A stretch of 64,000 nt of DNA from Phycisphaerae bacterium (GCA_009783465.1 WRDM01000008.1:2943-66942), one strand, 5' to 3'; numbered from the stretch's first letter, positions 8,522-23,504 are shown. The notes: generated by a model from the sequence alone, not told the origin. Translations and numbers: made by a program.

Positions 8522-9949
8522 TTACACGTTCAATTCGCTTTGTTGTCCCAGTTTTCCGGCGTATTTTTCCAGGATCGGCGCGATTTCGCCGGTGAGGAAT
8601 TCGTCTACCTGCTCGGGTGATCGGCCGATGTAGGCGCGGGGTTCCAGCACGGCGTTGAAATCGACGCGGTCGAATGCGTCGTCGTTTTGCAGGCGGTCCA
8701 GCAGGTCGTTGGGGTGGCCCCAGTTGACCTGTTCGGCCGAGGCGAGGCTGTGCACGCGGATGCGTTCGTGCAGTTTCTGCCGGTCGCCGCCGGCCCGGAC
8801 GGCCGCCATCAGGATGTTTTCCGTGGCCATGTACGGCAGCTCCGCGACGAAGTTCTGCGCGATGATATTCGGGTGCACCACGAGTCCCTGCGCCACGTTG
8901 AGCACGATGCGCAGGCAGGCGTCGGCGGTGAGGAAGGCCTCGGGAATCGCCAGCCGCTTGTTCGCCGAATCGTCGAGTGTGCGTTCGAACCACTGCTCGG
9001 CGGCCGTCTGGAGCGGCTGCGCGCTGATGCCGATCAGCCATCGCGCCAGCCCCGTCGCCCGCTCGCATCGCATGGGGTTGCGTTTGTACGCCATCGCGGA
9101 CGAGCCGACCTGGCTGGAGCCGAACGGTTCCTCGATTTCCCGGCAGTGGGACAGCAGGCGGATGTCATTGCAGAATTTGTGGACGCTGGCGCCGATGCCG
9201 CCCAGGGCGGCCGCGATGGCGGCGTCGATTTTCCGGCTGTAGGTTTGGCCCGTCACGGGGCAGACGCGCGCGAAACCGAATCGCTGCGCCACCGTGCGAT
9301 CGAGCCGCTTGACCTTCTCGTGGTCGCCGTCGAACAGGGCGAGGAAACTCGCCTGCGTGCCCGTGGTGCCCTTGACGCCGCGGAATTCGAGCGTCTCGAG
9401 GCGGTGTTCGAGTTCGCGCAGGTCCATGAGGAAATCCTGACACCAGAGGGTCGCGCGTTTACCGACGGTCGTGAGCTGGGCGGGCTGAAAGTGCGTGAAG
9501 GCCAGGCAGACCGTGTCGCGCTGCTTCCGCGCGAAGTCCGCCAGCGTGGCCGCGATGTTCGCGAGTTGGCCGATCAGGAGGCGCATGCCTTCGCGCATCA
9601 CGATGAGATCGGTGTTGTCGTTGACGTACTGGCTGGTGGCGCCGAGATGGATGATCGGTCTGGCGGCGGGGGCGGCGTCGCCGAACGTGTGAATATGCGC
9701 CATCACGTCGTGGCGGAGCCTGCGTTCGTGATGGCTGGCCGCGGCGAAGTTGATGTTGTCGAGATTCGCCTCCATCTGCGCGATCTGTTCGTCGGTGATG
9801 TCCAGGCCCAGTTCCTTCTGGCACCGGGCCAACTCCAGCCACAGCCGCCGCCACGTGGAGAATTTTTTCTGGTCGCCGAAGAGCGTCCGCATCTCCTTGC
9901 CGGCGTAGCGAGTTTCGAGCGGGCTGGTGTACGTGTTGCGATCTGGCAT
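8522..9949 (-). CDS. purB: adenylosuccinate lyase
   Basis: 475-aa ORF. 'SPLETRYAGKEMRTLF' and 'SSAMAYKRNPMRCE' (fumarate-lyase signature) are typical of PurB. Confidence 0.9.
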   Translation of the reverse strand: MPDRNTYTSPLETRYAGKEMRTLFGDQKKFSTWRRLWLELARCQKELGLDITDEQIAQMEANLDNINFAAASHHERRLRHDVMAHIHTFGDAAPAARPIIHLGATSQYVNDNTDLIVMREGMRLLIGQLANIAATLADFARKQRDTVCLAFTHFQPAQLTTVGKRATLWCQDFLMDLRELEHRLETLEFRGVKGTTGTQASFLALFDGDHEKVKRLDRTVAQRFGFARVCPVTGQTYSRKIDAAIAAALGGIGASVHKFCNDIRLLSHCREIEEPFGSSQVGSSAMAYKRNPMRCERATGLARWLIGISAQPLQTAAEQWFERTLDDSANKRLAIPEAFLTADACLRIVLNVAQGLVVHPNIIAQNFVAELPYMATENILMAAVRAGGDRQKLHERIRVHSLASAEQVNWGHPNDLLDRLQNDDAFDRVDFNAVLEPRAYIGRSPEQVDEFLTGEIAPILEKYAGKLGQQSELNV

Positions 9950-10230: not shown

Positions 10231-11874
10231 ATGACCTTCGAGATTGAAAGTTTCCAGGACGACACACTTGACGCGGAGTACATCGACCACCTGATCGACC
10301 GTGTGCTGCCCGAACAGATTCAGCAGACCGGGCGGCTGTGGGAGTACTTCCGCAACCCGATGGTGCCGCTTTCGGGGGCCGTTTCGATGGTGGCCAACGC
10401 GGCCACCAGGCCGTACATGCAGGCCCAGGAGCAGGGCTTGCCCGCCCGCATCACGGGCATCGCCGGCGCCAGCCGCGTGGGCGGCGACCGGAACCGCAAA
10501 GAAGTTGTCGTCGAGAACGACATCGCCTGGCGCGTCCACACGATGGTCGATTTTCTCTTCGGCCAGGAACCCACGATCCGCTCGACGGCCAGCGATCCCG
10601 AATTGGCCGGCGCGATCGAAGCCGTCATCGAGGCCATGCTCCAGGCCAACGGCGGCATGGGATTTTTGCAGGAAATGGCCCTGATGGGCAGCGTGTACGG
10701 CCACGTGGACGTGGCCGTCCGCGTGCCGGATGGATTGGTCCTACCCACCCCGGCCCAGGGATCGTGGGCGCCACGCACTTCTCCACGCCAAACGCGCCGA
10801 GTCAATCCCACCGCCGCCGACGAACCTTCCACCGTCGCGGCGGACGGGCCGGGCACTTCTACTACCTCCGACGCCGCGGGCGTCGATCGAGCGGATGCGG
10901 CAGGATCGGCCGGAGATCGGTCTAGCACGTTCGCACGGGCCGTCGAACTGGCCCGATTGATTACGCTGGAGGCCGTCGAGGCTCCGCGAATCCTGCCCAT
11001 CCTCGATGAGGACGACTACCGCACCATTCGCTACTGGGTGCAGGCCTATCACAAACGCCCGGCGCGGATGAACGTCCGCCGCCGGGGCCTGCTGGGACTG
11101 CGACGCGAAGCCAGTCCCGCCGAGGTCGAAGTCGTCGAAATCATCTCGCCGCATTGGTGGCAGCGGTACGAGGACCGCGTGCTGCTGGCCCAGGGCCCCA
11201 ATCGACTTGGCGTGCTGCCGGTGGTGCATGTGCAGAATCTTTCGGTGCCCAACAGCTACGAGGGGCTTTCGGACGTCGAGCCGCTGATTCCGCTCCAGGA
11301 CGAGTTGAACACGCGGTTGTCGGACCGTGCCAACCGCGTGACGTTCCAGTCGTTCAAGATGTACCTGGGCAAAGGTATCGAGGATTTCCTGGAGCGGCCT
11401 GTCGGGCCGGGACAGATGTGGGCGACGCACAACTTGTCCGCCAGCGTCGAGGAGTTCGGCGACGATCACGGCAGTCCCAGCGAGGATGCGCACATCGCAC
11501 AGGTTCGTTCGGCGATGGATAAGGTTTCGGGTGTGACGCCGGTTGCGGCGGGGCTGATCAACGGCAACGTGGGAAATCTCACGAGCGGCACGGCGTTGAA
11601 GATCGTGCTTGGCGGGCTGCTGACGCGGACGAACCGCAAGCGGCTGACGTACGGCGCGGGGTTGGCGGGCATGGTGGAGTTGGCGTTGCGGTATCTCGAT
11701 TACGCCGGCGTGCTGCCGACGCGCAAGGAGGACCGCAACGTGGAGATTCACTGGCCCAATCCGCTGCCCAACGACGAAAGCGAAGCCCTCCGCAACGCAC
11801 AGATCAAGGCCCAGCTCGGCCTGCCGCCCGACCGCGTCCTGGCCGAATTGGGCTATACGCGGGATAACCGGTAA
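10231..11874 (+). CDS. phage portal protein (SPP1 gp6-like)
   Basis: SD GAGGAG upstream of the ATG at 10231. 'GLSDVEPLIPLQDELNTRLSDRANRV' is a portal-family core. Low-complexity insert at about 10725-10960. Confidence 0.8.
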   Translation: MTFEIESFQDDTLDAEYIDHLIDRVLPEQIQQTGRLWEYFRNPMVPLSGAVSMVANAATRPYMQAQEQGLPARITGIAGASRVGGDRNRKEVVVENDIAWRVHTMVDFLFGQEPTIRSTASDPELAGAIEAVIEAMLQANGGMGFLQEMALMGSVYGHVDVAVRVPDGLVLPTPAQGSWAPRTSPRQTRRVNPTAADEPSTVAADGPGTSTTSDAAGVDRADAAGSAGDRSSTFARAVELARLITLEAVEAPRILPILDEDDYRTIRYWVQAYHKRPARMNVRRRGLLGLRREASPAEVEVVEIISPHWWQRYEDRVLLAQGPNRLGVLPVVHVQNLSVPNSYEGLSDVEPLIPLQDELNTRLSDRANRVTFQSFKMYLGKGIEDFLERPVGPGQMWATHNLSASVEEFGDDHGSPSEDAHIAQVRSAMDKVSGVTPVAAGLINGNVGNLTSGTALKIVLGGLLTRTNRKRLTYGAGLAGMVELALRYLDYAGVLPTRKEDRNVEIHWPNPLPNDESEALRNAQIKAQLGLPPDRVLAELGYTRDNR

Positions 11875-11972
11875 GAGGCTGTAGGCTGAAGGCTGTAGGC
11901 GCAGCACAGGCTTATGCGAGTTTAGACCCAACGAGACATAAGCCTCTCCCTACAGCCTACAGCCCACAGCCT
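11875..11972. repeat. HS-C hairpin element (CTGTAGG heptad arms)
   Basis: GAGGCTGTAGGCTGAAGGCTGTAGGC...GGCTTATG-loop-CATAAGCC...CCTACAGCCTACAGCCCACAGCC. Starts 1 nt after the portal stop codon. Confidence 0.85.
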
Positions 11973-12167
11973 GAAACGGCTCACGTCGCGAAGAACCACA
12001 CGAAGACGACACGCTATGGATGCACCCATCTATGAGGCATTCGGGATTCGGCAACGGCGGCGAGCGCCGCGCGAGGGGGATCGGCACGAACCTCCTGCCG
12101 ACCCGAATGCCTGAACGGAACACAGGCCATGGGCCCGGCGCCCATGACACAACGAAAGGAACTCATC

Positions 12168-12713
12168 ATGGCAGAACCCGTGGAAACTCAGCCGTCCTCT
12201 GACGCGTCCGACAAACTCGTCCCGGTGGGCGAGTCGATCAAGTATCGGCGTCGCGCGCAGCAGGCCGAGGGGCGGCTGACCCAGTTGGAGCAGCAGCTCA
12301 CGCAATTGCAGGGGCAATTGCAGACCCGGTCCGATGAGTTGGCGACGGCCGAGGCGCAGCGCGACGAAGCCCGCCAGCACATGACGCAGATGAACAACCA
12401 GTTCTCCGTCGACCGCCTGCTGATCCAGGCCGGCGTCGTGGATATGGAGGCCGCGAGACTGCTGCTGCAAAATCGCGTGGACCTCGGCGAGGAACTGGAG
12501 TCCACCGACATCGAACAGGCGGTGCAGCAACTGTTGGTGGACAAGCCGTTCCTCCGCGTCGGCAGCGCGTTTCCCCCCAAGAGCGCCAGCGCCAGCCGGG
12601 GCGGCGCGTCGCTGACGGCCCGGATCGCCAACGCCGCCGACCGCGCCGTCGAAAGCGGCGATCGACGCGACGTGGCCGAGTACCTCCGCCTGCGACGTCA
12701 GGCGAATCGTTAG
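12168..12713 (+). CDS. phage scaffolding protein (GP20-like coiled coil)
   Basis: SD AAAGGA upstream of the ATG at 12168. Coiled-coil 'LTQLEQQLTQLQGQLQ'. Sits between portal and capsid genes. C-terminal 'VQQLLVDKPFL'. Confidence 0.65.
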   Translation: MAEPVETQPSSDASDKLVPVGESIKYRRRAQQAEGRLTQLEQQLTQLQGQLQTRSDELATAEAQRDEARQHMTQMNNQFSVDRLLIQAGVVDMEAARLLLQNRVDLGEELESTDIEQAVQQLLVDKPFLRVGSAFPPKSASASRGGASLTARIANAADRAVESGDRRDVAEYLRLRRQANR

Positions 12714-12776
12714 CCCGTCCCCGCGGCCGGCACAGTGCCGACCGCACAAACCCACTGAACATCAAGGAGAAACATT

Positions 12777-13934
12777 ATGCCGTTTACTGGCAAGGCAACC
12801 TATTCCGCCGGCAGCACGCTGCCGGAAATCGCCGATGACGTGTCGGACATCGTCAGCATCGTCAGTCCGTACGAAACCCCGCTGCTGGATCACCTGGGCG
12901 ACCCGGCCCGCGCGGCGTCGAGCACGTATCACGAGTGGCTTGAGGACAGCCTGATTCCCAACATGGACGTGATCAACGACACGGTCATGACGGACCCGGC
13001 CAACAAGACCACGATCACGATGACCAACGGTTCGCGGTTCCGCGTCGGCGACCAGATTCGTCCGCACGGCAGTCTCGAGATTCTGTACGTGACCAACGTG
13101 ACGAACAATGTGATCACCGTCACGCGCGGCTACGGCGCAACGCCCAAGACCGCCATCGCCAACGGGCAGACACTGCACATCATCGGCAACGCCGCCCTGG
13201 AAGGCGACGACGCGCCGCTGACCCGATTCACCAGTCGCGTGCGAAAAGGCAACTGGACGCAGATTTTTGTCTCCACCGTCCGCGTCAGCGGCAGCGACCT
13301 GGCCGTCCGCAAACTGGCCGTCAGCGACGAATTGGATTACCAGAAGCAGGAACGTCTGCGCGAGATGCTCCGCGACCTGGAGAGCACCGTGCTTTGTGGC
13401 CGTTCGCCGCTGATGTCGCCCGAGGGCAGTTCCACCGTCCGCCGAACGATGATGGGCATCCTGCCGTCGATCACCACCAACGTGTTCAAGCCCAGCGTCG
13501 GCGGCTTCCCCAACGACACGGCCCTGACCGAGGCCCAACTGAATCTCGCGATGCGGCGGATCTGGGAAGGTTCCAGCGCCCGCGTGGACACGATCGTCGT
13601 TGGCGGCTTCCAGAAGCGGCGGATCAACGGCTTCATCGCGTCGGGGGCGAGGAATATCAACGGCCGCGAGACGACCTACCGTGATCTGGTGAGCGTGTAC
13701 GAGAGCGATTTCGGCGTGTGCCGGATCATTCTCAGCCGCTCGCTGCCGGCTGACAGCGTGCTGCTGCTGGACTCCAGCCGCGTGAGCGTGATGCCGCTGA
13801 ACGGACGACACTTCCACTACAAACCGCTGGCCACCACTGGCGATTACGAAGCCGGCGAAGTCATCGGCGAGTACACGGTCGAACTGCGTAACGAAATCGC
13901 CCACGGCATCATCACGGGCCTGGATGCGAGCTAA
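12777..13934 (+). CDS. phage major capsid protein (DUF5309/SU10-like)
   Basis: SD AAGGAG. 'VSIVSPYETPLLDHLG...YHEWLEDSL' and 'NWTQIF...VSGS' match the DUF5309 capsid pattern as I recall it. Confidence 0.7.
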   Translation: MPFTGKATYSAGSTLPEIADDVSDIVSIVSPYETPLLDHLGDPARAASSTYHEWLEDSLIPNMDVINDTVMTDPANKTTITMTNGSRFRVGDQIRPHGSLEILYVTNVTNNVITVTRGYGATPKTAIANGQTLHIIGNAALEGDDAPLTRFTSRVRKGNWTQIFVSTVRVSGSDLAVRKLAVSDELDYQKQERLREMLRDLESTVLCGRSPLMSPEGSSTVRRTMMGILPSITTNVFKPSVGGFPNDTALTEAQLNLAMRRIWEGSSARVDTIVVGGFQKRRINGFIASGARNINGRETTYRDLVSVYESDFGVCRIILSRSLPADSVLLLDSSRVSVMPLNGRHFHYKPLATTGDYEAGEVIGEYTVELRNEIAHGIITGLDAS

Positions 13935-13937
13935 CGG

Positions 13938-14094
13938 CAGCCAATAGCCAGTAGCCAATAGCCAATAGGTACGGAACGATATTGGCGAAAGGCAATGAAT
14001 GTGGGAGTTGGCATAAATCTCAAACAGATCACGATCGTGTGATTTTCGACAGGTTTCACCATACCTATTGGCTACTGGCTGCTGGCTACTGGCT
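13938..14094. repeat. HS-A hairpin element, copy 3
   Basis: Arms 13938-13969 and 14061-14094. Loop blocks are the same as in copy 1. Confidence 0.85.
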
Positions 14095-14111
14095 TTTTCA
14101 GGAGAATTCCC

Positions 14112-14762
14112 ATGACCCCACAATGTACCGACCGTGATTTGCTGGCCTTGGAAACGATTCTGTTTCTCGGCGCCGGCGGGACGCAGCAGTTGACTGGCGG
14201 AGCGAACGGGCAGTTGAGCGGCACGACGTTCACCGCCGCCGGCGCCGATTTTCCGGAGGCCGGCATTCAGCCCGGCATGGTGCTGACCACGTACGACCCC
14301 GCCCGCGGGCCGGCGGAAGGGCGGGCCTGCGAAATCGTCGCCGTGCGGGCGGCGACGCAACTGGACGTCTCCGTCCTCCGCGCCGCCGCGGACGCCCCGT
14401 CCGTCGCGCCGTATCCAGGGGGAACCCACTTTCTCATCCGCACCTATCAGCCGCAAATCCAGGCCGTCCATGACGCACTGATGGAGCGGCTGATGCGGGC
14501 GCGTGCGGCCGACCGGGCCAATGTTGGTTCGTTTCTGCCTTCGCCGCAACTGCGGCAGGCCCTGGCGTGCGGGACGCTGGCGGCCGTGTTTGTCAGCCGG
14601 GCGCAGGATGGCACCGCCGCCGACGCCAACTGGCTCAAGGCCGAGCACTACCGCCGCGAGTTCGAGCGGCTCTCGTCCTCGCTGCAACTGACGCCCGAAT
14701 CCTCCGACGGCCTGGGCGGTGGCGTAGTTGCGATGGGCAACGTGACATTGAGGAGGGTGTGA
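14112..14762 (+). CDS. phage structural protein, head-tail connector candidate
   Basis: SD CAGGAGAA. Position immediately after the capsid gene. No recognisable motif. Confidence 0.5.
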   Translation: MTPQCTDRDLLALETILFLGAGGTQQLTGGANGQLSGTTFTAAGADFPEAGIQPGMVLTTYDPARGPAEGRACEIVAVRAATQLDVSVLRAAADAPSVAPYPGGTHFLIRTYQPQIQAVHDALMERLMRARAADRANVGSFLPSPQLRQALACGTLAAVFVSRAQDGTAADANWLKAEHYRREFERLSSSLQLTPESSDGLGGGVVAMGNVTLRRV

Positions 14763-14764
14763 TC

Positions 14765-15883
14765 ATGACCGACAACCCTCTTCCGAACGGATTCAAACGC
14801 CTGGAGCACATGCTGTTCCTTCGCACGCCAGCCCTGTTTGTGACGGACTGGCTGCTGGCGGAGACGGACGGCGTCTGGGTGGATTATCAGCCGCGAAACG
14901 ACATGCCCAGCGTCACCTACGGAAACTATTTCGGCGTGGCGTTTGGCTCGTCCTCCACGGTGTCGATGGGTGCCGCGTCCTATTCCGTCGGGAGAAACTG
15001 GCCCGTCACGACGCAGAACGGGCATATCTATTGGGGCGGGCGATACCGCAGCATCACGGGCATCGGCGACGTGGACAATCAGAGGCACACCCATTCGGTG
15101 AACTGGCTCAACGACCGGACGACGCGATGGGATGGGTCGATCCGCGATACGCTGCCCTCCACGTCGGGCAGTTTTTACACCGAGCCGCTCTGCATCGGCG
15201 GATCGAGCCAGATGGGCGCGCCTAACAGTTACTTCATGTTCGCCGGCGAGATCTACCGGCTGAAGGTCAGCCGCGACGACCAGGTCGTCCGCGACTACGT
15301 TCCCTCCCTCGACGCCTCCGGCGTGCTGGTGTGGTGCTGCCTGCTGACAGGCCACGTAGCCCGGCGACTGGAACACACGACATCGACTTGGCCGGAAGCG
15401 GGGCCCGTCGTGCCCGACGATCCCGTCGAGCCTCCGCCACCGTCACCGATTGCGCCGCACTCCACGGCCACAAAGATTCTGAATCATATCGTCGCGACGC
15501 TGCGGGACACGGGTGCGTTTGCCGAGGTGTCGCTGGCCGCCACCGACGCGGCGCGGATGACCTTACCACGGGCCGACGTGACGTTCGACGGCCTGGAACG
15601 GCTGGCCTTGGACGACGCGCCCGTTGCGGCCTGGCGACTGGCGGCCGTCGTGCGAATCCGCGTCCGCAACGAGCACAACGACGACGCGCTGCGGCGGGCG
15701 CTGGACCTGGCCGACAAGGCCGTTACGACCCTGCGGAACAGCCGGTTCCGTGGCGGACTTTGCCAGGACATCCCTCGCGGCCTGGCGACCGTGGTAACGG
15801 AAACCAAGCCGGCGTCGCCGCATCGGCCGGACGCGGAAGTCCGGCTGTTGGTCCACTGTCATTATCTGGAGGCATCGACATGA
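14765..15883 (+). CDS. phage tail/fibre-like fusion protein
   Basis: The N-terminal domain resembles the fibre-associated 'LEYIESTGTQYIDTG ... VRDFVP' jelly-roll ('FKRLEHMLF...IYRLKVSRDDQVVRDYVPS'). A Pro-rich linker follows, then a C-terminal tail-completion-like domain. Confidence 0.55.
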   Translation: MTDNPLPNGFKRLEHMLFLRTPALFVTDWLLAETDGVWVDYQPRNDMPSVTYGNYFGVAFGSSSTVSMGAASYSVGRNWPVTTQNGHIYWGGRYRSITGIGDVDNQRHTHSVNWLNDRTTRWDGSIRDTLPSTSGSFYTEPLCIGGSSQMGAPNSYFMFAGEIYRLKVSRDDQVVRDYVPSLDASGVLVWCCLLTGHVARRLEHTTSTWPEAGPVVPDDPVEPPPPSPIAPHSTATKILNHIVATLRDTGAFAEVSLAATDAARMTLPRADVTFDGLERLALDDAPVAAWRLAAVVRIRVRNEHNDDALRRALDLADKAVTTLRNSRFRGGLCQDIPRGLATVVTETKPASPHRPDAEVRLLVHCHYLEAST

Positions 15884-16284
15884 TGCGATTTGCGACGATC
15901 GTTTCCGCCCGCTTCGGCGAGGTGGAGTTGCCGCTGCCGATGTCGGCGCGGATTGGCCGGCGAAGCCAGGTGCTGCCGGCCGCCGGAGATGCCGACCGGT
16001 TTGTCCGCAGCGTGCAACTGGCCCCGGCGATGCTGACGGGCGAAGTGACGCTTCGCGGTATCGCCGCCGCGGAGGAGCTGGCGCTCGGGCAGTCGGGCGA
16101 ACTCTCGCTCACGCTGGGCGCGACGCAGGCGGGTCAGCCGCCACGAGTGGTCCGCCTGAGCGGGGCCGTCCTGCACGACATCGAACTGACGTACACGCAA
16201 CAGGGCATGGCGCAGGCGACACTGAAATTCGCCGCCCAGGCCGACGACGACTGCGAACCCTTTGTCGCCAACGACGACGAATAG
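15880..16284 (+). CDS. phage structural protein (small)
   Basis: ATGA start/stop overlap with the upstream gene indicates translational coupling. 134 aa. Confidence 0.5.
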   Translation: MMRFATIVSARFGEVELPLPMSARIGRRSQVLPAAGDADRFVRSVQLAPAMLTGEVTLRGIAAAEELALGQSGELSLTLGATQAGQPPRVVRLSGAVLHDIELTYTQQGMAQATLKFAAQADDDCEPFVANDDE

Positions 16285-16286
16285 CA

Positions 16287-16390
16287 GACTGTAGGCTGTA
16301 GGCTGAAGGCTGTAGGCTGTAGGCGCGGGCTTATGAAACATTAGGCCTAATCCTTCATAAGCCTGCCCCCACAGCCCACAGCCCACAGCC
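16287..16390. repeat. HS-C hairpin element
   Basis: 5 CTGTAGG-type units, core GGCGCGGGCTTATG...CATAAGCCTGCC, then CACAGCC x3. Confidence 0.85.
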
Positions 16391-16409
16391 TTACAACCAC
16401 GAGGAACGT

Positions 16410-16775
16410 ATGACGACGATTGATACCGACAACCTGTTTTCCTCCGGGCCTTGCCGTGTCAGGCCGACGTCGTGGCACCGCCAACTGGAACGCCGCGCCT
16501 TTGCCGGCCTGCACGGCGAACTGGTGCTGGACCTCGGCGCCCGAAGCCGCACGATCGTGCAGCAGGGCCGGCTACAGGCCGCCACCGCTGCCGGCCTGCA
16601 CGCGATCATCGAGAGCATCGAAGCCTACGCCGACGGCGCCTTCCACACACTGGTCGACAACCACGGCCATCCGTATGAACGCGTGCTGCTGGAATCATTC
16701 GAGCCCACAACGCCCGTCGCCCACGGCAACGCATTCTGGTGCGAGTACACCCTCACCTGGCGGCAGATGCCATAA
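16410..16775 (+). CDS. phage structural protein (small)
   Basis: SD GAGGAA upstream of the ATG at 16410. 121 aa. Bounded by hairpin repeats on both sides. Confidence 0.5.
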   Translation: MTTIDTDNLFSSGPCRVRPTSWHRQLERRAFAGLHGELVLDLGARSRTIVQQGRLQAATAAGLHAIIESIEAYADGAFHTLVDNHGHPYERVLLESFEPTTPVAHGNAFWCEYTLTWRQMP

Positions 16776-16780
16776 CTCAG

Positions 16781-16921
16781 GCGTCTGACGTGGCGAGGGC
16801 GTTTCGCCCTCGCGTCTCGCGGGCATCTTGCCCGCACCGGATAACGAAGTCGATTCGACGTTTTCCACTGACTAGGCCAATGGAGCACACAACGCGGGCG
16901 AGACGCCCGCGTCACGTGACG
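16781..16921. repeat. GC-rich palindromic element (GC-pal, CACGTGACGCGGGCG subtype), intergenic
   Basis: Three small hairpins: GGCGAGGGCG-TTT-CGCCCTCGC, GCGGGCA-TCT-TGCCCGC and GCGGGCG-AGA-CGCCCGC. Terminus CGTCACGTGAC. Confidence 0.75.
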
Positions 16922-16938
16922 GCCACAAGGAGTCACAG

Positions 16939-18660
16939 ATGACAACAACCCTTTCCGAAGACGCCGACCGCGCGATGCCCGCCGTGACGCCGGCGGTGTT
17001 TGTGGACGGCCTGCTGCGCGAGGATCTGGTGTGCGTGCGGTGGCAGTGGCTTGGCGGGCCAGAGTTCGGGCGGGCCGTCGTGCAGGCCCGTGGCGGCGGC
17101 GACGGGCGGCTGCCGCGCGTCGAGGAGATCGACGTTCTGCCGCCCATCGGGGCCGACGTGTGCATCGCCGGCGAGCCGGGCGGGATGGCCGACACGGAGT
17201 TCATAGGCCGGGTCGCTGCACACGAACTCGTCGCCGGACCCGAGGGCGAACAACTTTCCGCCGTCGTCGAACACCAACTCAACGATGTATTGGCCGGCAC
17301 GATCACGTCGTCGTTTCACGTGGGTGTCGGCCAGGGGCTGGTGGAACTGCCGGAGGCGGCGATTCGTTTTGGCCCGCCCGACGGCCTGTGTTCGACGCAC
17401 ACGGTCCTGCACAACGGGCGAATGACGCCCGCGTTCTCTGCCGCCGCCGATGCCACCGTCTGGACCGTCGCCGACGCGCTGGCGTATCTGCTCGCGACGG
17501 CCGTGCCCTCCACCGTCAACGCGCCGACGCATGCGCAGCTTCAACTGCTGACGAACTTTCTGCCGCTGGACGACCTGAGCATCACCGGCAAGAGCGTGGC
17601 GGCGGCGTTGCAGGCGGTGGCGGAGTTGGCCGGCCTGTCGCTACGGGCCGCCCGAGAGAATGTGGGGCTGGTGTTCTACCGCGCTGGATTCGACGGGCGG
17701 GATGCAAATGTCGCCCTTCAGCCGGCAATGGAACCGTTCTCCGCCGAGGCGACGAATCTGTGGCGCGGGCGGATCGCTTTTCGCCGCCGCCCCAGCCGCC
17801 GCGGCGTGTTGATGCTCGGCGAACGCAGACGCTACGAACTCTCCACCGGCATGCTGCCCGGCTGGAACCCGGCAAGACACACCACGCGATGGCGCGACTG
17901 CGTCCGCAGCCTGTCGCCCAACTGGGCAGCCTACGGCGACGTGTATCGCAAATGGGTGCTCAACGAACACGCGTGGTACGGCGGTTCGCCGTGGAATTTG
18001 CCGACGTGGACCGGCGCGCAGGTCAACGCGAACCATTTTCTGCTTTGCCAGCCGCGACAATTTCTGCCGTGTCTTTCCGCCAACCAGGCCAACAAAAGCA
18101 TGGGCATCGTGGTGGAAGTCAGTTGGCCCAACAGCCCGTGGCGGCGTTGGCGCGGGCCGTTGTGGGTCAGCCGCGACGAGTGCTCGGTGTACCTGGGAGG
18201 CGACGCGTTGCCGGGAGAATTTTTCCAGGCCGCCGCTGCCGGCACGGCAGGCGTTCGCGTGACGGCGTGCGTCGACGCCGACGCGAGGCTGACGGCTTCG
18301 CTGCCCGGCGACGGCGGCGCGTGGATCGTCGTGCCGGCGCCGAAAGGCCAGGGACTGTGGCGGCAGATTCACAACAGCAGCGTTTTCCTTGGCGCCTCCG
18401 GCATGGGCCAACCGGGCGTCTGCGACGACAGCGAGGTCCTGTCCCGCCTGGCCACGCGACGCCAGGAACGCCCGCCCGATGCGGTCGATGCTGATTTCGA
18501 ACTGGCGTGGGTGGATCTGGGCGTCGGCGTCGGCGACGTCGTGGACCGCGTGGCCGGCCGCGAGATCGACCTGACCGCGTGGGCCGACGCCACGCCCAGC
18601 GTGAAGGCCGTTACGCACGATTTTCTCAAACAGACCACGCGCCTGGAGGTGCACGGATGA
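16939..18660 (+). CDS. phage tail/baseplate-like large protein
   Basis: SD AAGGAG. 573 aa. Largest ORF of the module, in the tail-gene position. Confidence 0.55.
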   Translation: MTTTLSEDADRAMPAVTPAVFVDGLLREDLVCVRWQWLGGPEFGRAVVQARGGGDGRLPRVEEIDVLPPIGADVCIAGEPGGMADTEFIGRVAAHELVAGPEGEQLSAVVEHQLNDVLAGTITSSFHVGVGQGLVELPEAAIRFGPPDGLCSTHTVLHNGRMTPAFSAAADATVWTVADALAYLLATAVPSTVNAPTHAQLQLLTNFLPLDDLSITGKSVAAALQAVAELAGLSLRAARENVGLVFYRAGFDGRDANVALQPAMEPFSAEATNLWRGRIAFRRRPSRRGVLMLGERRRYELSTGMLPGWNPARHTTRWRDCVRSLSPNWAAYGDVYRKWVLNEHAWYGGSPWNLPTWTGAQVNANHFLLCQPRQFLPCLSANQANKSMGIVVEVSWPNSPWRRWRGPLWVSRDECSVYLGGDALPGEFFQAAAAGTAGVRVTACVDADARLTASLPGDGGAWIVVPAPKGQGLWRQIHNSSVFLGASGMGQPGVCDDSEVLSRLATRRQERPPDAVDADFELAWVDLGVGVGDVVDRVAGREIDLTAWADATPSVKAVTHDFLKQTTRLEVHG

Positions 18661-19220
18661 CCGCGCCGAAATTCCATGATTCGCTGTATCGGCTTGCCCA
18701 GATCGGCACGAGCCTGGGCGTGCAACTGGTTCGACTGACCGCATGCCACGGCGACAATCAGTACGCCGCCCTGCCGGTGGAGTTCGATTCCGCCGGCCTG
18801 ACGCAGGTGGCGGAGAACGCGCCGCTGACCGTATTGAACCTGGCCGAGCCTGCCGACGCGGCGGGCACGCTGCCGGCCGACACGGAGGCCGTCGCCATCG
18901 ACGTCGAGGGCAAGTGGGTGATTTTTGTCCGGCAGGCGCCGTCGTCGAATCCCTCGTCGACGCGGCTGGCCCGCGTCAGCGGCGTGCAGTCCGGCGTGGG
19001 GCGGTATTACATCCGCTGGCAGGAGTGCCTCGCGAACGGGCAGTTCCAGGACACCAGCGATCCAGACCCCGCCGTCGCGACGAACCTGGCCGAGCTGTCG
19101 TTCGGCTCGGTGGCGGCGGTGGATCTCAACACCATCGTGCCGATTCTGACCGTCGTCGACGTCACCGGCGTCGCACGGTACGTCTTCGACCATCCGGCGT
19201 ACGCGAAGTATCTGGATTAA
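18657..19220 (+). CDS. phage structural protein
   Basis: ATGA overlap with the upstream gene. 187 aa. Confidence 0.5.
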   Translation: MTAPKFHDSLYRLAQIGTSLGVQLVRLTACHGDNQYAALPVEFDSAGLTQVAENAPLTVLNLAEPADAAGTLPADTEAVAIDVEGKWVIFVRQAPSSNPSSTRLARVSGVQSGVGRYYIRWQECLANGQFQDTSDPDPAVATNLAELSFGSVAAVDLNTIVPILTVVDVTGVARYVFDHPAYAKYLD

Positions 19221-19225
19221 TTGCA

Positions 19226-19453
19226 AAAGCCACTAGCCACCAGCCACCAGGGCTTGCGTGACGCGTAGGTGAAGGAAAACCATTTGCCAGAGGGAAACGT
19301 TTCGTTGACTCGTTAACTGGTTAACTCGTTAATTCGGCGCCAAGTCAACCAGTTAACGAGTTAACCAGTTAACGAAAATGTTCCCTCGAATCTGCGACAT
19401 GATTTCACCGCCGAGCAGTCGAAAAACCTATGTGCTACGTAGCTGGTGGCTTT
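19226..19453. repeat. HS-B hairpin (GCCACTA/GCCACCA arms) containing a nested HS-E (GTTAAC) hairpin at 19290-19387
   Basis: Outer arms 19226-19252 and 19441-19453 (right arm short). The inner element is flanked by GAGGGAAAC / GTTCCCTC. Confidence 0.7.
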
Positions 19454-19470
19454 CTGAAGGGGACTTAACC

Positions 19471-20583
19471 ATGACGACAATCTATACGCCGCAGTGGGCC
19501 AATGCCAACTCGGCGGGTCTGGTGGATTCGAGCCGGTATATCCGTCGTTGTGATCTGGACGAGCTGGCCGCGGCGATCAATCGGCGGCGGCTGCTGGTGA
19601 TTCAGAATCCGTACGAGTACGGCCCGCTGCTGGATGCCCGTCCGTACGTCAGCCAGTATGCGATCGACGACAGCTCCGAGATGTCCGCGCAGGATCACTA
19701 CGCGATGGCCATGCGGCATGCGGTGATTAACAGAATTCTCTACGCGCAGCCAGGCCGCGACACCCTGCATCAGCCGGCATCGCCGAAGTCGATCACGTGG
19801 CTGTGGCCTCTGGCGGACGCCGACGAAAACAAGGCCATCACGACCTGGCTGGCGTCGCCGTCGTCGACCGCGGTAGGCCTGTTCAACCGGCTCAACGGTT
19901 CGGCCACGTGGACTCAGCCCACGCTGCACGCCAACGGCGTGGATTACGCCAAGGCCGTCCACGTCAACGAGCTTCGTCAGGCCCTCGAATGGCTGCGGCG
20001 AGGACGATGGGAACTTCCGATCTATTGGAATCTGGGGATGCTCTCGGAGGTTCCCGACACGGGGTGGTTTGGCGACAGCATCGCCAACACCGGTTCGGGC
20101 GAGTTGCGAAGTCTCGGCCTGTTGCGGGCGGTTCTTCTGGCGTCGGAAATTGGCGGCGGGATGGCGCCAAACGTGTACGGGCTTCACGGCGTGCGGGTGC
20201 TGTCGGCGTCGATTTCCATCGCGGTGAACACCGCGTGCGTCGTGGAGCTTCGCCAGGTGTTGCGTCCAATTTCGCTGGTGCGGACCGCGGGCGACTTGCC
20301 GACGTGGAATCACTATCGCGGCACGAGCAAGCTGGCATGGGCGCAGCCGGGTGGCATGGGGGCGGGCGACAGCGTGGCGATCGGCGGCGGCGCGACATCG
20401 GCGTCCCCCGGCTCGCCAGCCGTCTTCAGCGGCGGCGATCTGCTGCCGGTGTTGCAGGCAATGTTCGATCAGGAGGCGGGCCAGTTCTTCCTGCTCCGCC
20501 GCGTCGACGTCGCCAACACGATGGTCGACATCACCGGCACGACGTTGACGGTGGATTTCGAACTCACCTCGCCGCCGGCGTGA
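19471..20583 (+). CDS. phage tail-fibre-like protein
   Basis: ATG at 19471. Two 'xxNELRxAxxxLR'-type motifs ('DLDELAAAINRRR', 'HVNELRQALEWLRR'), which I have seen in phage fibre/structural proteins. Confidence 0.5.
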   Translation: MTTIYTPQWANANSAGLVDSSRYIRRCDLDELAAAINRRRLLVIQNPYEYGPLLDARPYVSQYAIDDSSEMSAQDHYAMAMRHAVINRILYAQPGRDTLHQPASPKSITWLWPLADADENKAITTWLASPSSTAVGLFNRLNGSATWTQPTLHANGVDYAKAVHVNELRQALEWLRRGRWELPIYWNLGMLSEVPDTGWFGDSIANTGSGELRSLGLLRAVLLASEIGGGMAPNVYGLHGVRVLSASISIAVNTACVVELRQVLRPISLVRTAGDLPTWNHYRGTSKLAWAQPGGMGAGDSVAIGGGATSASPGSPAVFSGGDLLPVLQAMFDQEAGQFFLLRRVDVANTMVDITGTTLTVDFELTSPPA

Positions 20584-20593
20584 AGATGCAGAT

Positions 20594-20805
20594 GCCACAA
20601 GCCACCAGCCACAAGCCACCAGGGCTTGTGGGGCGCGACGGTAAATTTTTCCATCGCGGTGGCGAGAGAGGTCCCGATGCTTCGCGGATACGGCGGTCAA
20701 GGCGGATAACTTACGTTTCGAGTCAGCGAAGCATCGGGACCTCTCTCTCTCGGACAAACGGAACGATTTTCCATTCATGCACCGCAAACCCTTGTCGCTT
20801 GTGGC
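20594..20805. repeat. HS-B hairpin with nested inner hairpin (20664-20748)
   Basis: Arms GCCACAAGCCACCAGCCACAAGCCACCAGGG / CCCTTGTCGCTTGTGGC. Inner hairpin GAGAGAGGTCCCGATGCTTCGC...GCGAAGCATCGGGACCTCTCTC. Confidence 0.8.
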
Positions 20806-20844
20806 TTTGTACCTGCGTGACGAACCACCCGAGAGGAGGGCAGC

Positions 20845-21159
20845 ATGATCAGCGTGATCACGGATTTGACGAGCATGGGGGCGGCGGGGGTGATGGGGGC
20901 GATGTGGCTGTGGGAGCGGCGTGCATCGGCCCAGCGGGAGCGGGAGTTGACCGAGTCGCACGGGCGGATCCTGCGGGACGAGCAGCGGTTGGACAAACTC
21001 ACGCACGTCGTGGAGCAGGCGACGGCGGCCATCACCCGGTTTCAGCAGACGCAGCAGGAGATGAGCGAGTTGATCAAGCACGTTCTTAAGGAGATTCATC
21101 ATGGCGGCACAACGGAAACTCGAAATCAGAAACCCGAAACTCGAAACAAACCCCAATGA
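20845..21159 (+). CDS. small N-terminal-TM coiled-coil protein (i-spanin/holin-like)
   Basis: SD GAGAGGAGGG. TM 'MGAAGVMGAMWLW' followed by a coiled coil. The last ~15 codons are encoded by a repeat arm. Confidence 0.45.
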   Translation: MISVITDLTSMGAAGVMGAMWLWERRASAQRERELTESHGRILRDEQRLDKLTHVVEQATAAITRFQQTQQEMSELIKHVLKEIHHGGTTETRNQKPETRNKPQ

Positions 21160-21342
21160 ACGGCGGAAGTTCGAAATCCAAAGCATGAAATCCGAAACAA
21201 ATTTCAAACAACAAATTCGAAACTCGAAACGGCGCCGCCAAACATCATGCCTGCGCTCCAAGGCGTCATGCGTTACCGTTTGGAATTTGCTGTTTGGGTC
21301 ATTGGGGTTTGTTTCGAATTTCGAATTTCGAATTTCGAATTT
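21114..21342. repeat. HS-F hairpin (GAAACNC / CGAATTT heptad arms)
   Basis: Left arm GGAAACTCGAAATCAGAAACCCGAAACTCGAAACAAACCCCAATGA. Right arm TCATTGGGGTTTGTTTCGAATTTCGAATTTCGAATTTCGAATTT. Confidence 0.75.
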
Positions 21343-21370
21343 ATCACGCCTGGCGATCGTGGCGTGTCTT

Positions 21371-21829
21371 ATGACGTTGCTGGGCGGCTGTGCGGCGCCG
21401 ACGGCCACGCTGGATTTGATTGCCGTCGCCCGCGCGGGATTGGCCGACGCGCGGGATGCGCAGCGGCAGTCGCACGAGACCTTGATACGGCAGTTCTCTC
21501 AGCAGCAGGCGGCGCTCGACGCGGCCTTCGACGCCGACGTCCGGCTGGCGGAGGCCGGGGCGATCCGCGACGCGCAGGGCAACCCCGTCGCGCTGGACGG
21601 GCGATGGGTGATCGCCGCCCGCAAAGGCTATGTGGCCGCCCGCGACGCCGTGGCACAACAGGCCGTTGCCGCGCAGGCCGCCCACGCCACGCGGCTGGAC
21701 AACCTCGCCGCCGCCGACGACGCGCTCCACATGGCCTGCACGCTCATCATCGAACAACAGGGCCTGAACATCCGCATGCGGCAGTACCTCCAGAAAGCCA
21801 CAAGCCACAAGCCACTAGCCACAAGGTAA
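21371..21829 (+). CDS. helical lipoprotein
   Basis: Lipobox 'LLGGC'. Start ambiguous (GTG 21359 or ATG 21371). The C-terminal 'KATSHKPLATR' is encoded by a repeat arm. Confidence 0.45.
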   Translation: MTLLGGCAAPTATLDLIAVARAGLADARDAQRQSHETLIRQFSQQQAALDAAFDADVRLAEAGAIRDAQGNPVALDGRWVIAARKGYVAARDAVAQQAVAAQAAHATRLDNLAAADDALHMACTLIIEQQGLNIRMRQYLQKATSHKPLATR

Positions 21830-21947
21830 GGATAGTCTCTGGCTAAAAGACAATGATCGCGGAAATGGCTGTACCTGTTCGATGAACCAGGATCGGCTGA
21901 TGGGTAACAGGTTTTGCCATACCTGGTGGCTAGTGGCTAGTGGCTTT
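21794..21947. repeat. HS-B hairpin
   Basis: Arms AAAGCCACAAGCCACAAGCCACTAGCCACAAGGTAAGG / CCATACCTGGTGGCTAGTGGCTAGTGGCTTT. Confidence 0.85.
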
Positions 21948-21983
21948 TTTCGTTTATCGCCGAATCACAATAAAAGGAAAACC

Positions 21984-22238
21984 GTGGACAATCAACTTAA
22001 CGACATCGTTTCTCGGGCCGTGGGACAACGCTACGACGAATGGGCGACGCAGCATCCGTCGCTGGCGAGCGTGATCGACCACGTGGAACTTTCGCAACAG
22101 ACGGCCGAGAGGCTCCGCGAAACCCCCGCGTACTGGCAGGCCGTCAACGAGTACCACACCAGCCGCAACGAACTGAACTTCCTCACCCGCCTGCTGGACC
22201 TGGCCGGCCCGGTTCTCCGGGATATCCTGGCGAAGTGA
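21984..22238 (+). CDS. hypothetical small protein
   Basis: GTG at 21984 preceded by AAAAGGAAA. 84 aa, helical. Confidence 0.35.
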   Translation: MDNQLNDIVSRAVGQRYDEWATQHPSLASVIDHVELSQQTAERLRETPAYWQAVNEYHTSRNELNFLTRLLDLAGPVLRDILAK

Positions 22239-22265: not shown

Positions 22266-23504
22266 CTACGGCGTTTCGAGGAGATTCTGCCAGCAGCACT
22301 TGGCCGTGACGTTGTGGCGGCGGCATATGTCCAGCAGTGGGGCGGTGATGGCGGATTGGGCGGTTGGCGGCAGTCGCCAGCTTCCGCCGCGGAAGGTCAG
22401 GCGTTCGGGCGGCTGGGATTCGTGGGCGATGGATTCGTAGAGGGTTCGCATGTGTCGCATCGTGGGCGAGAGCGGGCGGTTTCGCGGCTGGACGATTTTG
22501 GCCGTGGAATATACGACGTGACGGACGCCGACCTCTTTGGCGAACGCGACCAGCCGTTCCAGGTCGTCGAGCGTTTGCGGCCATTCTCGTGACGCGGGCG
22601 TCTCGCCCGCGTTGTGTGTTCCATGGGCTTGGCCGTTGAAAGACGAAAAATCTTTTTCATCGGCTGACGGCGAGGGCTGGAAGCCCTCGCGACACGCGGG
22701 CGAGACGCCCGCGTCACGTTTTTCGGCACGCGGGAACAGCGGGTCGATTCGCAGGACCACGTCCACGCCGGCCTGGCGGAGACGGCGGATGCCTGCAACG
22801 CGGTCTTCAACGCTCGGCGCGCCGGGATCATAGAGTTTCCTGGCCTCGTCACGCCAGAACGCCAGGCTGACCTCGAGGAGAAAACCAGGCCGTGGCGAGT
22901 TGTGTTTGGACGCGTGGAGTTTTCGGAACAGTTCGTCGCAGCCCAACTCCACGGCCAGGCGTGGATTTTTCGTCAGGACGACGACGCTCGTGAATCGGTT
23001 GCGATGGTCGAGGATCCGCCGCAGCGTCAGTCGCGTGTGGCCGGCGTCGGCTTCGAGCGGTTGAAACGCGTCGGTGCTGTTGGACAGATGAATCGGCGCG
23101 GGCGGGACGTTGAAGCGTTCCAGATCGGCGAGGTCCTTATCGAGCGACCGTGCGAAATCCCGCTTCACGCCCGCTTCGGACGGCTCGTATGCGGCGGCGT
23201 AACAGTACTCGCACGCGTGCGAACAGCCGGTGTAGACGTTGACGCAGTAGCGATGCCCGCTGGGAAAATACCGTTGGCTGGCGAACGGACAATACCACTT
23301 GACGACGCGAGGCCGCGTGGGGCAGAGCGTCGGCTTTTTCGATCCGTGCGGCAGAAAATACAACGCCATGGCCGCCTGCTCTCGCGGCGTTTTTTTTTGC
23401 CAGGCCGGCGCGTATTTTTCGTCGATCCGCCGAACCAGCGACAGGCCCTCATCGATGTGGGTTGAGTTGATTGAGAACAGGCTCAATCCGCCTCCTCCGG
23501 CCAC
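22266..23504 (-). CDS. radical SAM protein (COG1533 'DNA repair photolyase'/SplB-like) carrying an in-frame repeat insertion
   Basis: 'NVYTGCSHACEYCYA' is the CxxxCxxC cluster. The central ~44 aa are encoded by the palindromic element 22588..22718. Confidence 0.8.
   Translation of the reverse strand: MAGGGGLSLFSINSTHIDEGLSLVRRIDEKYAPAWQKKTPREQAAMALYFLPHGSKKPTLCPTRPRVVKWYCPFASQRYFPSGHRYCVNVYTGCSHACEYCYAAAYEPSEAGVKRDFARSLDKDLADLERFNVPPAPIHLSNSTDAFQPLEADAGHTRLTLRRILDHRNRFTSVVVLTKNPRLAVELGCDELFRKLHASKHNSPRPGFLLEVSLAFWRDEARKLYDPGAPSVEDRVAGIRRLRQAGVDVVLRIDPLFPRAEKRDAGVSPACREGFQPSPSADEKDFSSFNGQAHGTHNAGETPASREWPQTLDDLERLVAFAKEVGVRHVVYSTAKIVQPRNRPLSPTMRHMRTLYESIAHESQPPERLTFRGGSWRLPPTAQSAITAPLLDICRRHNVTAKCCWQNLLETP
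22588..22718. repeat. GC-pal element inserted in frame in the radical SAM gene
   Basis: Termini CGTGACGCGGGCGTCTCGCCCGCG / CGCGGGCGAGACGCCCGCGTCACG. Internal GGCGAGGGCTGGAAGCCCTCGC hairpin. Confidence 0.8.

Follow-up and report, generated by a model that had tools for sequence, protein, structure and literature searches.

Host hairpin repeats at the gene junctions of an old phage-derived cluster in a Phycisphaerae bacterium

Intergenic palindromic repeats within operons, including repetitive extragenic palindromic sequences (REPs) and the bacterial interspersed mosaic elements (BIMEs), Correia elements and enterobacterial repetitive intergenic consensus (ERIC) sequences, are already well known. 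REPs are said to stabilise upstream segments of messenger RNA (mRNA) and, when they lie no more than about 15 nt from a stop codon, reportedly reduce expression through ribosome stalling. Hairpins of the Neisseria Correia or Neisseria miniature insertion sequence (NEMIS) kind and of the Yersinia ERIC kind are said to be co-transcribed, with RNase III cleavage or changed stability as the outcome, while T7 reportedly carries intercistronic RNase III sites at which, once the RNA is cleaved, 3' hairpins remain and stabilise the message upstream of them. Short tandemly repeated repetitive (STRR) sequences of heptanucleotides have reportedly been described from cyanobacteria. The termini of GTAG/CGTC-tagged REPs may supply the stop codon of a flanking open reading frame (ORF) (Di Nocera et al. 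2013, PMC3733652), and in Coxiella burnetii the S23p-carrying intervening sequence (IVS) has a 28-bp terminal stem that is cut by RNase III (PMC4990558). The present analysis concerns a stretch of 64,000 nt (the window) from a Phycisphaerae bacterium (GCA_009783465.1, WRDM01000008.1:2943-66942; C8:2943-66942 in the contig numbering used here), in which eight long hairpins, H1 to H8, lie at junctions between the genes of a phage-derived head/tail-like cluster (the module). The assembly is a metagenome-assembled genome (MAG) of 2.48 Mb in 70 contigs and is approximately 70% complete. The explanation considered likely is that the eight hairpins are host repeats inserted in an old phage-derived cluster, that they are mostly selfish or neutral with side effects at the level of RNA, and that H2, past the capsid gene, stands in the place of an ancestral hairpin.

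Eight hairpins and six dispersed repeat families

Eight hairpins had been listed in an earlier note on this DNA, and all were recovered (Table 1) with predicted minimum free energies (MFE) of -55 to -106 kcal/mol and z-scores of -5.4 to -8.9 relative to dinucleotide shuffles. The module contained six strong hairpin clusters as opposed to none or one in each of 20 dinucleotide shuffles. The absence of hairpins between the overlapping pairs 14112/14765/15880 and 16939/18657, also claimed in that note, was borne out, as was their absence from the scaffold-capsid gap, which in its 63 nt held no repeat and just a small local stem-loop. Six of the hairpins started 2-9 nt past a stop codon, and H7 and H8 overlapped gene ends. 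At their other end the hairpins stopped approximately 16-37 nt upstream of the next start, except for H1, which left some 196 nt up to the scaffold start, and H7, which overlapped the next gene; Shine-Dalgarno (SD) sequences of their own were present in the downstream genes that were checked. No Rfam family matched any hairpin, the sole match in the window being a transfer RNA.

The eight hairpins belong to six repeat families that are dispersed over the host chromosome, of which four have tandem 7-nt arms (AGCCANN of two kinds, GGCTGTA and CGAAAYT), one is nested and has 8-nt units and one is GC-rich and REP/BIME-like. Tandem arms of 7-nt units were noted in seven of the eight (H1, H2, H3, H5, H6, H7 and H8), the heptads being AGCCA(A/G)T or AGCCAC(A/T/C), GGCTGTA and CGAAAYT, and an octad, GTTAACNN, was noted in the inner element of H5. 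Each element, taken whole and with its loop, had 13-62 full-length relatives at 75-92% identity, spread over many contigs, and 436 heptad or octad arrays were counted genome-wide, 90% of them intergenic. The type-A motif, (AGCCANN)x3-AGGTA, occurred 210 times in this genome (106 forward and 104 reverse) and not once in 60 other genera of the family, so that the repeats can be assigned to this host lineage.

The individual hairpins differed in architecture. The arms of H1, a family with 38 full-length genomic copies, enclose an inner hairpin, GGCTTATG...CATAAGCC (MFE -55, z -8.7). The loop of H2 (approximately 90 nt) is bounded by AGGTAnGG and CCATACCT and its stem is followed by a T5 run and then by the SD and ATG of the next gene; among the 62 full-length copies of this family, orientation with transcription prevailed 34:4. 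The corresponding figures for H6 were 21 full-length copies, oriented 13:2. Two refinements of the earlier note concern H4, which is not heptad-armed but contains three mini-hairpins of the CRCGGGCRnnnYGCCCGYG type (606 genome-wide), and H5, which consists of two elements, the GTTAACNN-armed one nested within the AGCCACN-armed one.

In two cases repeat arms extend into coding sequence. The left arm of H7 encodes the C-terminal 15 residues or so of the product of the 20845 gene (20845-21159), which ends in ETRNQKPETRNKPQ, encoded by CGAAAYT heptads. An open frame from 21101 spans all of H7, and the right arm, reading ...FVSNFEFRISNLSRLAIVACLMTLLGGC, is in frame with the signal peptide of the lipoprotein encoded next. 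To judge from this frame, the signal peptide probably takes its first residues from the right arm, with a TTG within or just upstream of that arm as the probable start codon. At its other end the lipoprotein (21371-21829) terminates in KATSHKPLATR, encoded by the AGCCACN heptads of H8, and a T6 run follows the right arm of that hairpin.

Table 1. Hairpins, gene cluster, flanking genes and PF05635 cassettes (positions in the window unless a contig is given, those on the other contigs being coordinates of the PF05635 gene; F1 to F5, repeat families)
Feature	Position	Strand	Description
H1	11876-11972		2 nt past portal stop (11874); GGCTGTA-heptad arms, family F1
H2	13939-14096	+	5 nt past capsid stop (13934); type-A, AGCCA(A/G)T heptad arms
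H3	16286-16392		2 nt past stop 16284; GGCTGTA-heptad hairpin, family F1
H4	16781-16921		6 nt past stop 16775; GC-rich REP/BIME-like composite with CRCGGGCRnnnYGCCCGYG mini-hairpins
H5 outer	19224-19455	+	4 nt past stop 19220; AGCCACN-heptad arms, CCAGGGCTTG core, family F3
H5 inner	19290-19388		nested; arms of the octad GTTAACNN, enclosed by the termini GAGGGAAAC...GTTCCCTC, family F4
H6	20592-20810	+	9 nt past stop 20583; AGCCACN-heptad arms (F3) around a 22-bp perfect inner hairpin
H7	21116-21342	+	CGAAAYT-heptad arms, family F5; overlaps 3' end of the 20845 gene
H8	21794-21947	+	type-A, AGCCACN arms; left arm forms the end of the lipoprotein gene (~11 codons), AGGTAA its stop (TAA)
Phage-derived head/tail-like cluster	10231..22238	+	13 co-directional genes, from the portal gene to a last gene of 84 aa
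purB (adenylosuccinate lyase)	8522-9949	-	upstream flank; host gene, public gene calls
Radical-SAM gene	22266-23486	-	downstream flank; host gene, public gene calls
Locus-specific non-repeat hairpin	12034-12112	+	in the portal-scaffold gap, upstream of the scaffold gene; unique in the genome; conserved in L084 and L085
PF05635 cassette	C18:27251-27565		type-A arms (AGCCAAT...AGGTAAGG ... CCATACCT...TGGCT)
PF05635 cassette	C31:13364-13678		GGCTGTA arms; inner GGCGCGGACTTATGA hairpin as in H1 and H3
PF05635 cassettes, other two	C18:23914-24231 and C50:1209-1421		GTGACAA and CGAATGA arms

Gene junctions compared among relatives

Junctions of the module were compared with those of homologous modules from 10-19 other genera, in which they were tight, and with those of the close relatives, i.e., four metagenome contigs of 80-85% nucleotide identity (L084, L085, L164 and L165). 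Thus, the portal-scaffold gap was 293 nt here and mostly 3-50 nt in the other genera, the g6-g7 gap 125 nt as opposed to -4 nt in all ten other genera, the g9-g10 gap 250 nt as opposed to 2-8 nt, the g10-g11 gap 261 nt as opposed to mostly 9-55 nt, the g11-g12 gap 211 nt as opposed to 4-43 nt and the g12-g13 gap 154 nt as opposed to -8 to 4 nt. Among the close relatives, H1 was present in L085 and missing from L084, H3 was missing from L084, where the junction reads TGA CAA ATG (genes 3 nt apart), and L165 was without H5, H6 and H8, the respective gaps being 11, 63 and 20 nt; empty sites in these contigs were located at g6-g7, g9-g10, g10-g11 and g12-g13. At some identical junctions a hairpin of the GTGACAA/GCGACAA type was found instead, namely at mcp-g4 in L084 and at g9-g10 (GCGACAA) and g12-g13 (GTGACAA) in L164, and L084 also carried a hairpin of this family between the scaffold and capsid genes, where there is none in this genome. 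H4 and H7 were common to all three lineages, with orthologues of H4 in L084, L164 and L165, and of H7 in L164 and, in part, in L165. Other genera had heptad hairpins of their own, with different heptads, at scattered junctions of the module.

These comparisons show that the hairpins are host-derived insertions, as the earlier note had proposed, that they are specific to this lineage and entered a formerly tight, translationally coupled cluster, and that insertion is ongoing, the corresponding junctions of sister populations being either empty or occupied by another heptad family. From the empty sites and exchanged families, together with the separate hairpins of other genera, it follows that turnover is fast, recurrent and aimed at a few bases past stop codons.

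The junction past the capsid gene stood apart. Over the 110 nt that follow the capsid stop in relatives, the median z-score was -3.6, with 12 of 20 values below -3 and 18 of 20 below -1; the median at every other module junction was near 0. A homologous post-capsid hairpin, unique within each genome and with compensatory changes at 5 of 19 pairs, was found in five genera, and a textbook terminator follows the capsid gene in L040, a distant relative. In the close relatives, as in this genome, the same place is held by heptad-armed repeats of different families between flanks that are conserved to the base. Among the eight junctions this was the sole one where relatives also keep a hairpin, which supports functional constraint on the position and lends comparative support to the suggestion of the earlier note that a hairpin after the capsid gene is meaningful. 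H2 would have taken over the place, and probably the role, of an ancestral dedicated hairpin.

With respect to the module itself, Pfam and PHROGs searches identified the portal (PF05133), scaffold (PF06810, weakly) and capsid (PF17236, SU10_MCP, at 4e-81) genes, the other module genes being without a family match. The order of module genes beside purB was kept in at least 10 genera, and of 61 genomes drawn from across the class, 30 had capsid homologues (55-71% identity, mostly single copy), with identity dropping as taxonomic distance grew. All 13 reading frames were intact, and the encoded proteins were 72-86% identical to those of the closest relatives (g10 just 55-57%) and 30-71% identical across genera. 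No terminase or integrase gene adjoined the module. To judge from synteny and sequence divergence, the module is old, chromosomal, vertically inherited and phage-derived. Thus, the term phage module used in the earlier note holds for the derivation of the genes but not for a recent prophage, the locus being chromosomal beside purB across the family and the capsid gene being found across the class. Long exposure to host repeats is to be expected of a locus conserved beside purB across the family.

The nearest capsids in a cultured-phage database were at most 32% identical and a free-phage comparator was therefore absent. Two IMG/VR contigs, L046 and L047, encoded capsids of 69% and 58% identity, had no other module gene in common with this locus and were without heptad arrays; sharing of the capsid only could reflect capsid exchange between free phages and the chromosomal locus, or mosaic neighbour genes. 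A third contig, L070 (IMGVR_UViG_3300006226_000108), encoded a capsid of 28% identity and had, between 4900 and 17050, ten AGTGATT/AGTGGTT heptad arrays. Three of the arrays form inverted pairs, and most of the ten start a few bases past the stops of structural genes, that of the capsid included.

Two further features of the module were noted. Between g7 and g8 (16775-16939) nothing but the GC-rich REP-like element (H4) of approximately 160 nt is present in this genome and in the close relatives, and all other genera (L022-L035) have 2.2-5 kb with 3-6 ORFs at this point. No homologues of the middle ORFs were found elsewhere in the 70%-complete assembly when it was searched, and the difference represents the loss or replacement, in this clade, of a middle segment that is variable. 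The locus-specific hairpin of the portal-scaffold gap (Table 1) is followed by a GC mini-hairpin (12127-12146) that overlaps ATG 12129, the scaffold start of the public annotation; the start that is conserved in relatives is 12168.

Origin of the repeats and competing explanations

A possible source of the hairpins was evident from their resemblance to full-length elements elsewhere in the genome. Four genes for PF05635 ('23S rRNA intervening-sequence protein', a four-helix bundle) were found, all of them located between host genes and enclosed by inverted heptad arrays of four different families, two of which are the families of the module (Table 1). H2 matched the C18:27251 cassette over 51 nt at 88% identity and H3 the C31:13364 cassette over 86 nt at 85% identity, in both cases reaching beyond the arms, while the match between H8 and a cassette was limited to the arms. 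The shared arms and the matches to cassette ends identify H1, H2, H3 and H8 as gene-less miniatures of PF05635 cassettes, a description that, on this sequence evidence, applies to at least the type-A AGCCANN and the GGCTGTA kinds. For H5, H6 and H7, which have the design in common, no full-length cassette partner was found in the 70%-complete assembly. To our knowledge PF05635 is not a known transposase; it was the only gene found inside full-length copies. The elements are not strict 23S rRNA intervening sequences in that all copies examined were located between protein-coding genes. Both neighbours of the PF05635 gene were called at three loci (the two on C18 and that on C31), and at each of these the gene was co-oriented with them.

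Placement relative to genes was regular. Of 55 type-A copies in co-directional gaps, 47 had the orientation of the neighbouring genes; the 5' arm of type-A copies lay at a median of 6 nt from the upstream stop (interquartile range -9.5 to 10), and a T-run, an SD and an ATG often came after the 3' arm. Divergent gaps held 19 type-A copies, approximately 130 nt from both starts, and convergent gaps held 5. At g6-g7, 19 of 25 positions agreed between the right flank of the hairpin, CAACCACGAGGAACGTATGACGACG, and the ancestral junction, CAACGACGAGTGACAAATGACAACG, which hints at a duplication of about 16 nt that would have left the stop codon as well as the start region in place. A similar view of H5, in which its right flank was taken from distant relatives to be a duplicated gene end, was rejected: L165 has the ancestral 11-nt spacer with an SD. 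A Y1_Tnp gene was located at C23:13560-13904.

Punctuation of this kind was not restricted to the module. A hairpin repeat of some kind was present in 43% of 1262 co-directional junctions, and in 63-76% of gaps of 150-500 nt, and a heptad-armed hairpin in 16.7%. The other regions with the highest density of heptad-armed hairpins were the flagellar flgK-flgI-flgH-flgG-flgE operon (C3:78-94 kb) and the ATP synthase a-c-b-delta-alpha-gamma operon (C21:36-43 kb), where most junctions carried one; the S10 ribosomal-protein operon (window 57991-64283) had none. Equal punctuation of the flagellar and ATP-synthase operons indicates a genome-wide habit and not a design specific to the phage genes. The count of hairpins, described in that note as unusual, is so in comparison with ordinary phages. 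Relative to the remainder of this genome it is unusual for heptad-armed hairpins (7 of 12 module junctions versus a genome rate of 0.167, P ~0.001) but not for hairpins of any kind (8 of 12 versus 0.43, P ~0.09; approximately 20% of 12-junction windows reach 8 of 12).

Several observations bear on a role of the hairpins as terminators. T5 and T6 runs follow the stems of H2 and H8, and H1 and H3 are without a U-tract. A simple terminator and promoter scan, which is blind to long hairpins, returned 12 terminator-like sites versus 9.5 expected. Among type-A copies, a T-run after the 3' arm (35%) was about as frequent as an A-run before the 5' arm (30%), a symmetry which argues that these are not classic polar terminators. 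Enrichment at convergent gene ends, as expected of terminators, was not seen, heptad hairpins being present at 7.7% of convergent junctions as opposed to 21% of divergent and 16.7% of co-directional junctions; this depletion also renders a pure gene-tail model insufficient. No bias toward G.U over A.C on the sense strand was detected in heptad hairpins (133 versus 123, p = 0.57), which argues against strong selection on pairing in mRNA.

Insertion of mostly selfish or neutral host repeats, with H2 in the place of an ancestral hairpin, would operate as follows. Most copies would be selfish or neutral passengers whose stems, 20-45 bp in length, would be transcribed within polycistronic mRNA, where they would uncouple translation at junctions of which three are overlapped or within 8 nt in other genera, and where, by analogy with 23S intervening sequences, T7 intercistronic sites, REPs and Correia/ERIC elements, they might act as RNase III processing sites or as barriers to 3' exonucleases; an rnc gene is present in the genome. 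The ancestral post-capsid hairpin, and H2 in its role, would dampen read-through or lend stability to the portal-scaffold-capsid segment. Several results weigh against this explanation. The heptad-armed load of the module lies in the top 1% or so of 12-junction windows, so that there may be some locus-specific preference or selection; the junction statistics come from a crude in-house gene caller applied to a 70%-complete MAG; no consistent target duplication was found among 91 type-A copies (flank alignment 5.18 versus 4.80 in mismatched controls, the top scores being nested elements); and no transposase linked to the elements was found. The symmetric runs, the depletion at convergent ends and the absence of a G.U bias must be counted here as well, although the same three results, together with the empty sites in sister populations, are the grounds on which selfish or neutral insertions with one constrained position are rated well above adaptive punctuation of every unit.

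Adaptive punctuation, in which selection keeps every hairpin as a terminator, attenuator or determinant of mRNA stability and so sets the amounts of structural proteins, is the idea of the earlier note and the strongest of the alternatives but is considered unlikely. It would account for the exact fit of the hairpins to the interval between stop and SD, for structure at the post-capsid position in nearly all relatives and for the finding that junctions shared by sister lineages are occupied by different families, and it agrees with the fact that the most punctuated operons specify assemblies of unequal stoichiometry (the flagellum, ATP synthase and this particle) while the equimolar S10 operon is free of heptad-armed hairpins. 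Selection for every hairpin is difficult to reconcile, however, with intact genes that lack hairpins at seven of the eight junctions in sister populations and all other genera, or with the atp operon, where junctions are mostly occupied whatever the stoichiometry of the subunits, and the expected signs, i.e., a polar T-run, a sense-strand G.U bias and enrichment at convergent ends, were all missing.

Next in probability, and also thought unlikely, is an active system in which the PF05635 protein places or rewrites hairpins at stop codons, cells exploit these to divide coupled operons for multi-subunit assemblies (flagellum, ATP synthase and phage-like particle) into RNase III-delimited mRNA units, each processed separately, and the post-capsid hairpin is a host repeat recruited as a replacement for a dedicated regulatory hairpin. 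Active placement would explain the occurrence of different heptad families at identical junctions in sister lineages.

The view of the hairpins as junk in a decaying prophage remnant, i.e., an unused module that tolerates insertions anywhere, appears very improbable. It draws on the lack of an adjoining terminase or integrase gene, on the 2-5 kb of g7-g8 genes that are present in other genera but not in this clade and on the two genes with repeat-encoded C-terminal extensions. An unused module would not be expected to retain 13 of 13 frames at the identities given above, nor would insertions be expected to avoid coding sequence and leave an SD in each of the downstream genes checked, and essential host operons are equally loaded with repeats. 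Spread of phage-borne regulatory hairpins from phage into host, suggested by the rank of the window among the repeat-richest parts of the assembly and by the heptad arrays after structural genes of the one unrelated IMG/VR contig (L070), is largely refuted and can be set aside as extremely unlikely, given that the homologous modules of 19 other genomes are without these families, that the contigs with the 69% and 58% identical capsids share the capsid only and are without heptad arrays, that the families (13-62 copies each) are on all contigs, housekeeping operons included, and that the full-length PF05635 cassettes are located between host genes.

Significance and comparison with known systems

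On the preferred reading, that of host repeats inserted in an old cluster, the module provides a dated, junction-by-junction record of the colonisation of a conserved operon, in which empty, occupied and differently occupied sites can be compared at 80-85% identity, and an example of insertion that is aimed at a few bases past the stop codon and recurs independently. The cassettes tie bacterial heptamer repeats, long noted and unexplained, to PF05635 in a further phylum. The post-capsid position, at which a hairpin persists irrespective of where it came from, offers a clean place to test the effects of hairpins on polycistronic mRNA. The locus also serves as a warning that what is described as 'host repeats in a prophage' may point to a phage-derived locus that is old and domesticated, and not to a regulatory design.

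Among hairpins of other bacteria and phages, the Correia and ERIC elements, as they are said to be, resemble those of the module as dispersed hairpins inserted between operon genes. Correia elements reportedly have defined terminal inverted repeats and duplicate a TA target, whereas the elements described here showed no consistent duplication and no transposase was found. The T7 sites, as reported, are likewise stem-loops located between the genes of a polycistronic phage transcript, but they are said to be phage-encoded, unique and conserved, as opposed to host repeats of recent and variable insertion. The cyanobacterial STRR sequences, by repute, are comparable as abundant intergenic arrays of 7-nt period and unexplained function.

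The same likeness extends to the GGGAATC-type repeats of Xanthomonas and Nostoc (PMC4692102) and the TAACTGA repeats of Beggiatoaceae (PMC4679880). These heptamer repeats appear to be described mainly as direct arrays, in contrast with the inverted pairs of this genome, which form hairpins, abut stop codons and are linked to PF05635. The 23S rRNA intervening sequences with an S23p/PF05635 ORF, known from Coxiella burnetii and Leptospira (PMC4990558), also have a PF05635 gene inside terminal inverted repeats that pair into a long stem, but they are situated in helix 45 of 23S rRNA, whereas the present elements are located between protein-coding genes, are mostly without a gene and have arms that are explicit tandem 7-nt arrays. 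Likeness to REPs and BIMEs is seen in the high copy number of intergenic palindromes in operons near stop codons and in the supply of the stop codon itself, as by H8, and H4 is of this kind. The other seven differ from these 20-40-bp palindromes in their length (97-232 nt), in their tandem heptad or octad arms and in a loop of 50-130 nt, and neither a GTAG/CGTC tag nor an association with REP-associated tyrosine transposases (RAYTs) was shown for them. Literature searches did not find heptad-armed hairpins described in Planctomycetota. What is unusual here, compared with the intergenic palindromes already known, is the combination of tandem-heptad arms, a link to PF05635, placement at stop codons and the substitution of one family for another at identical junctions.

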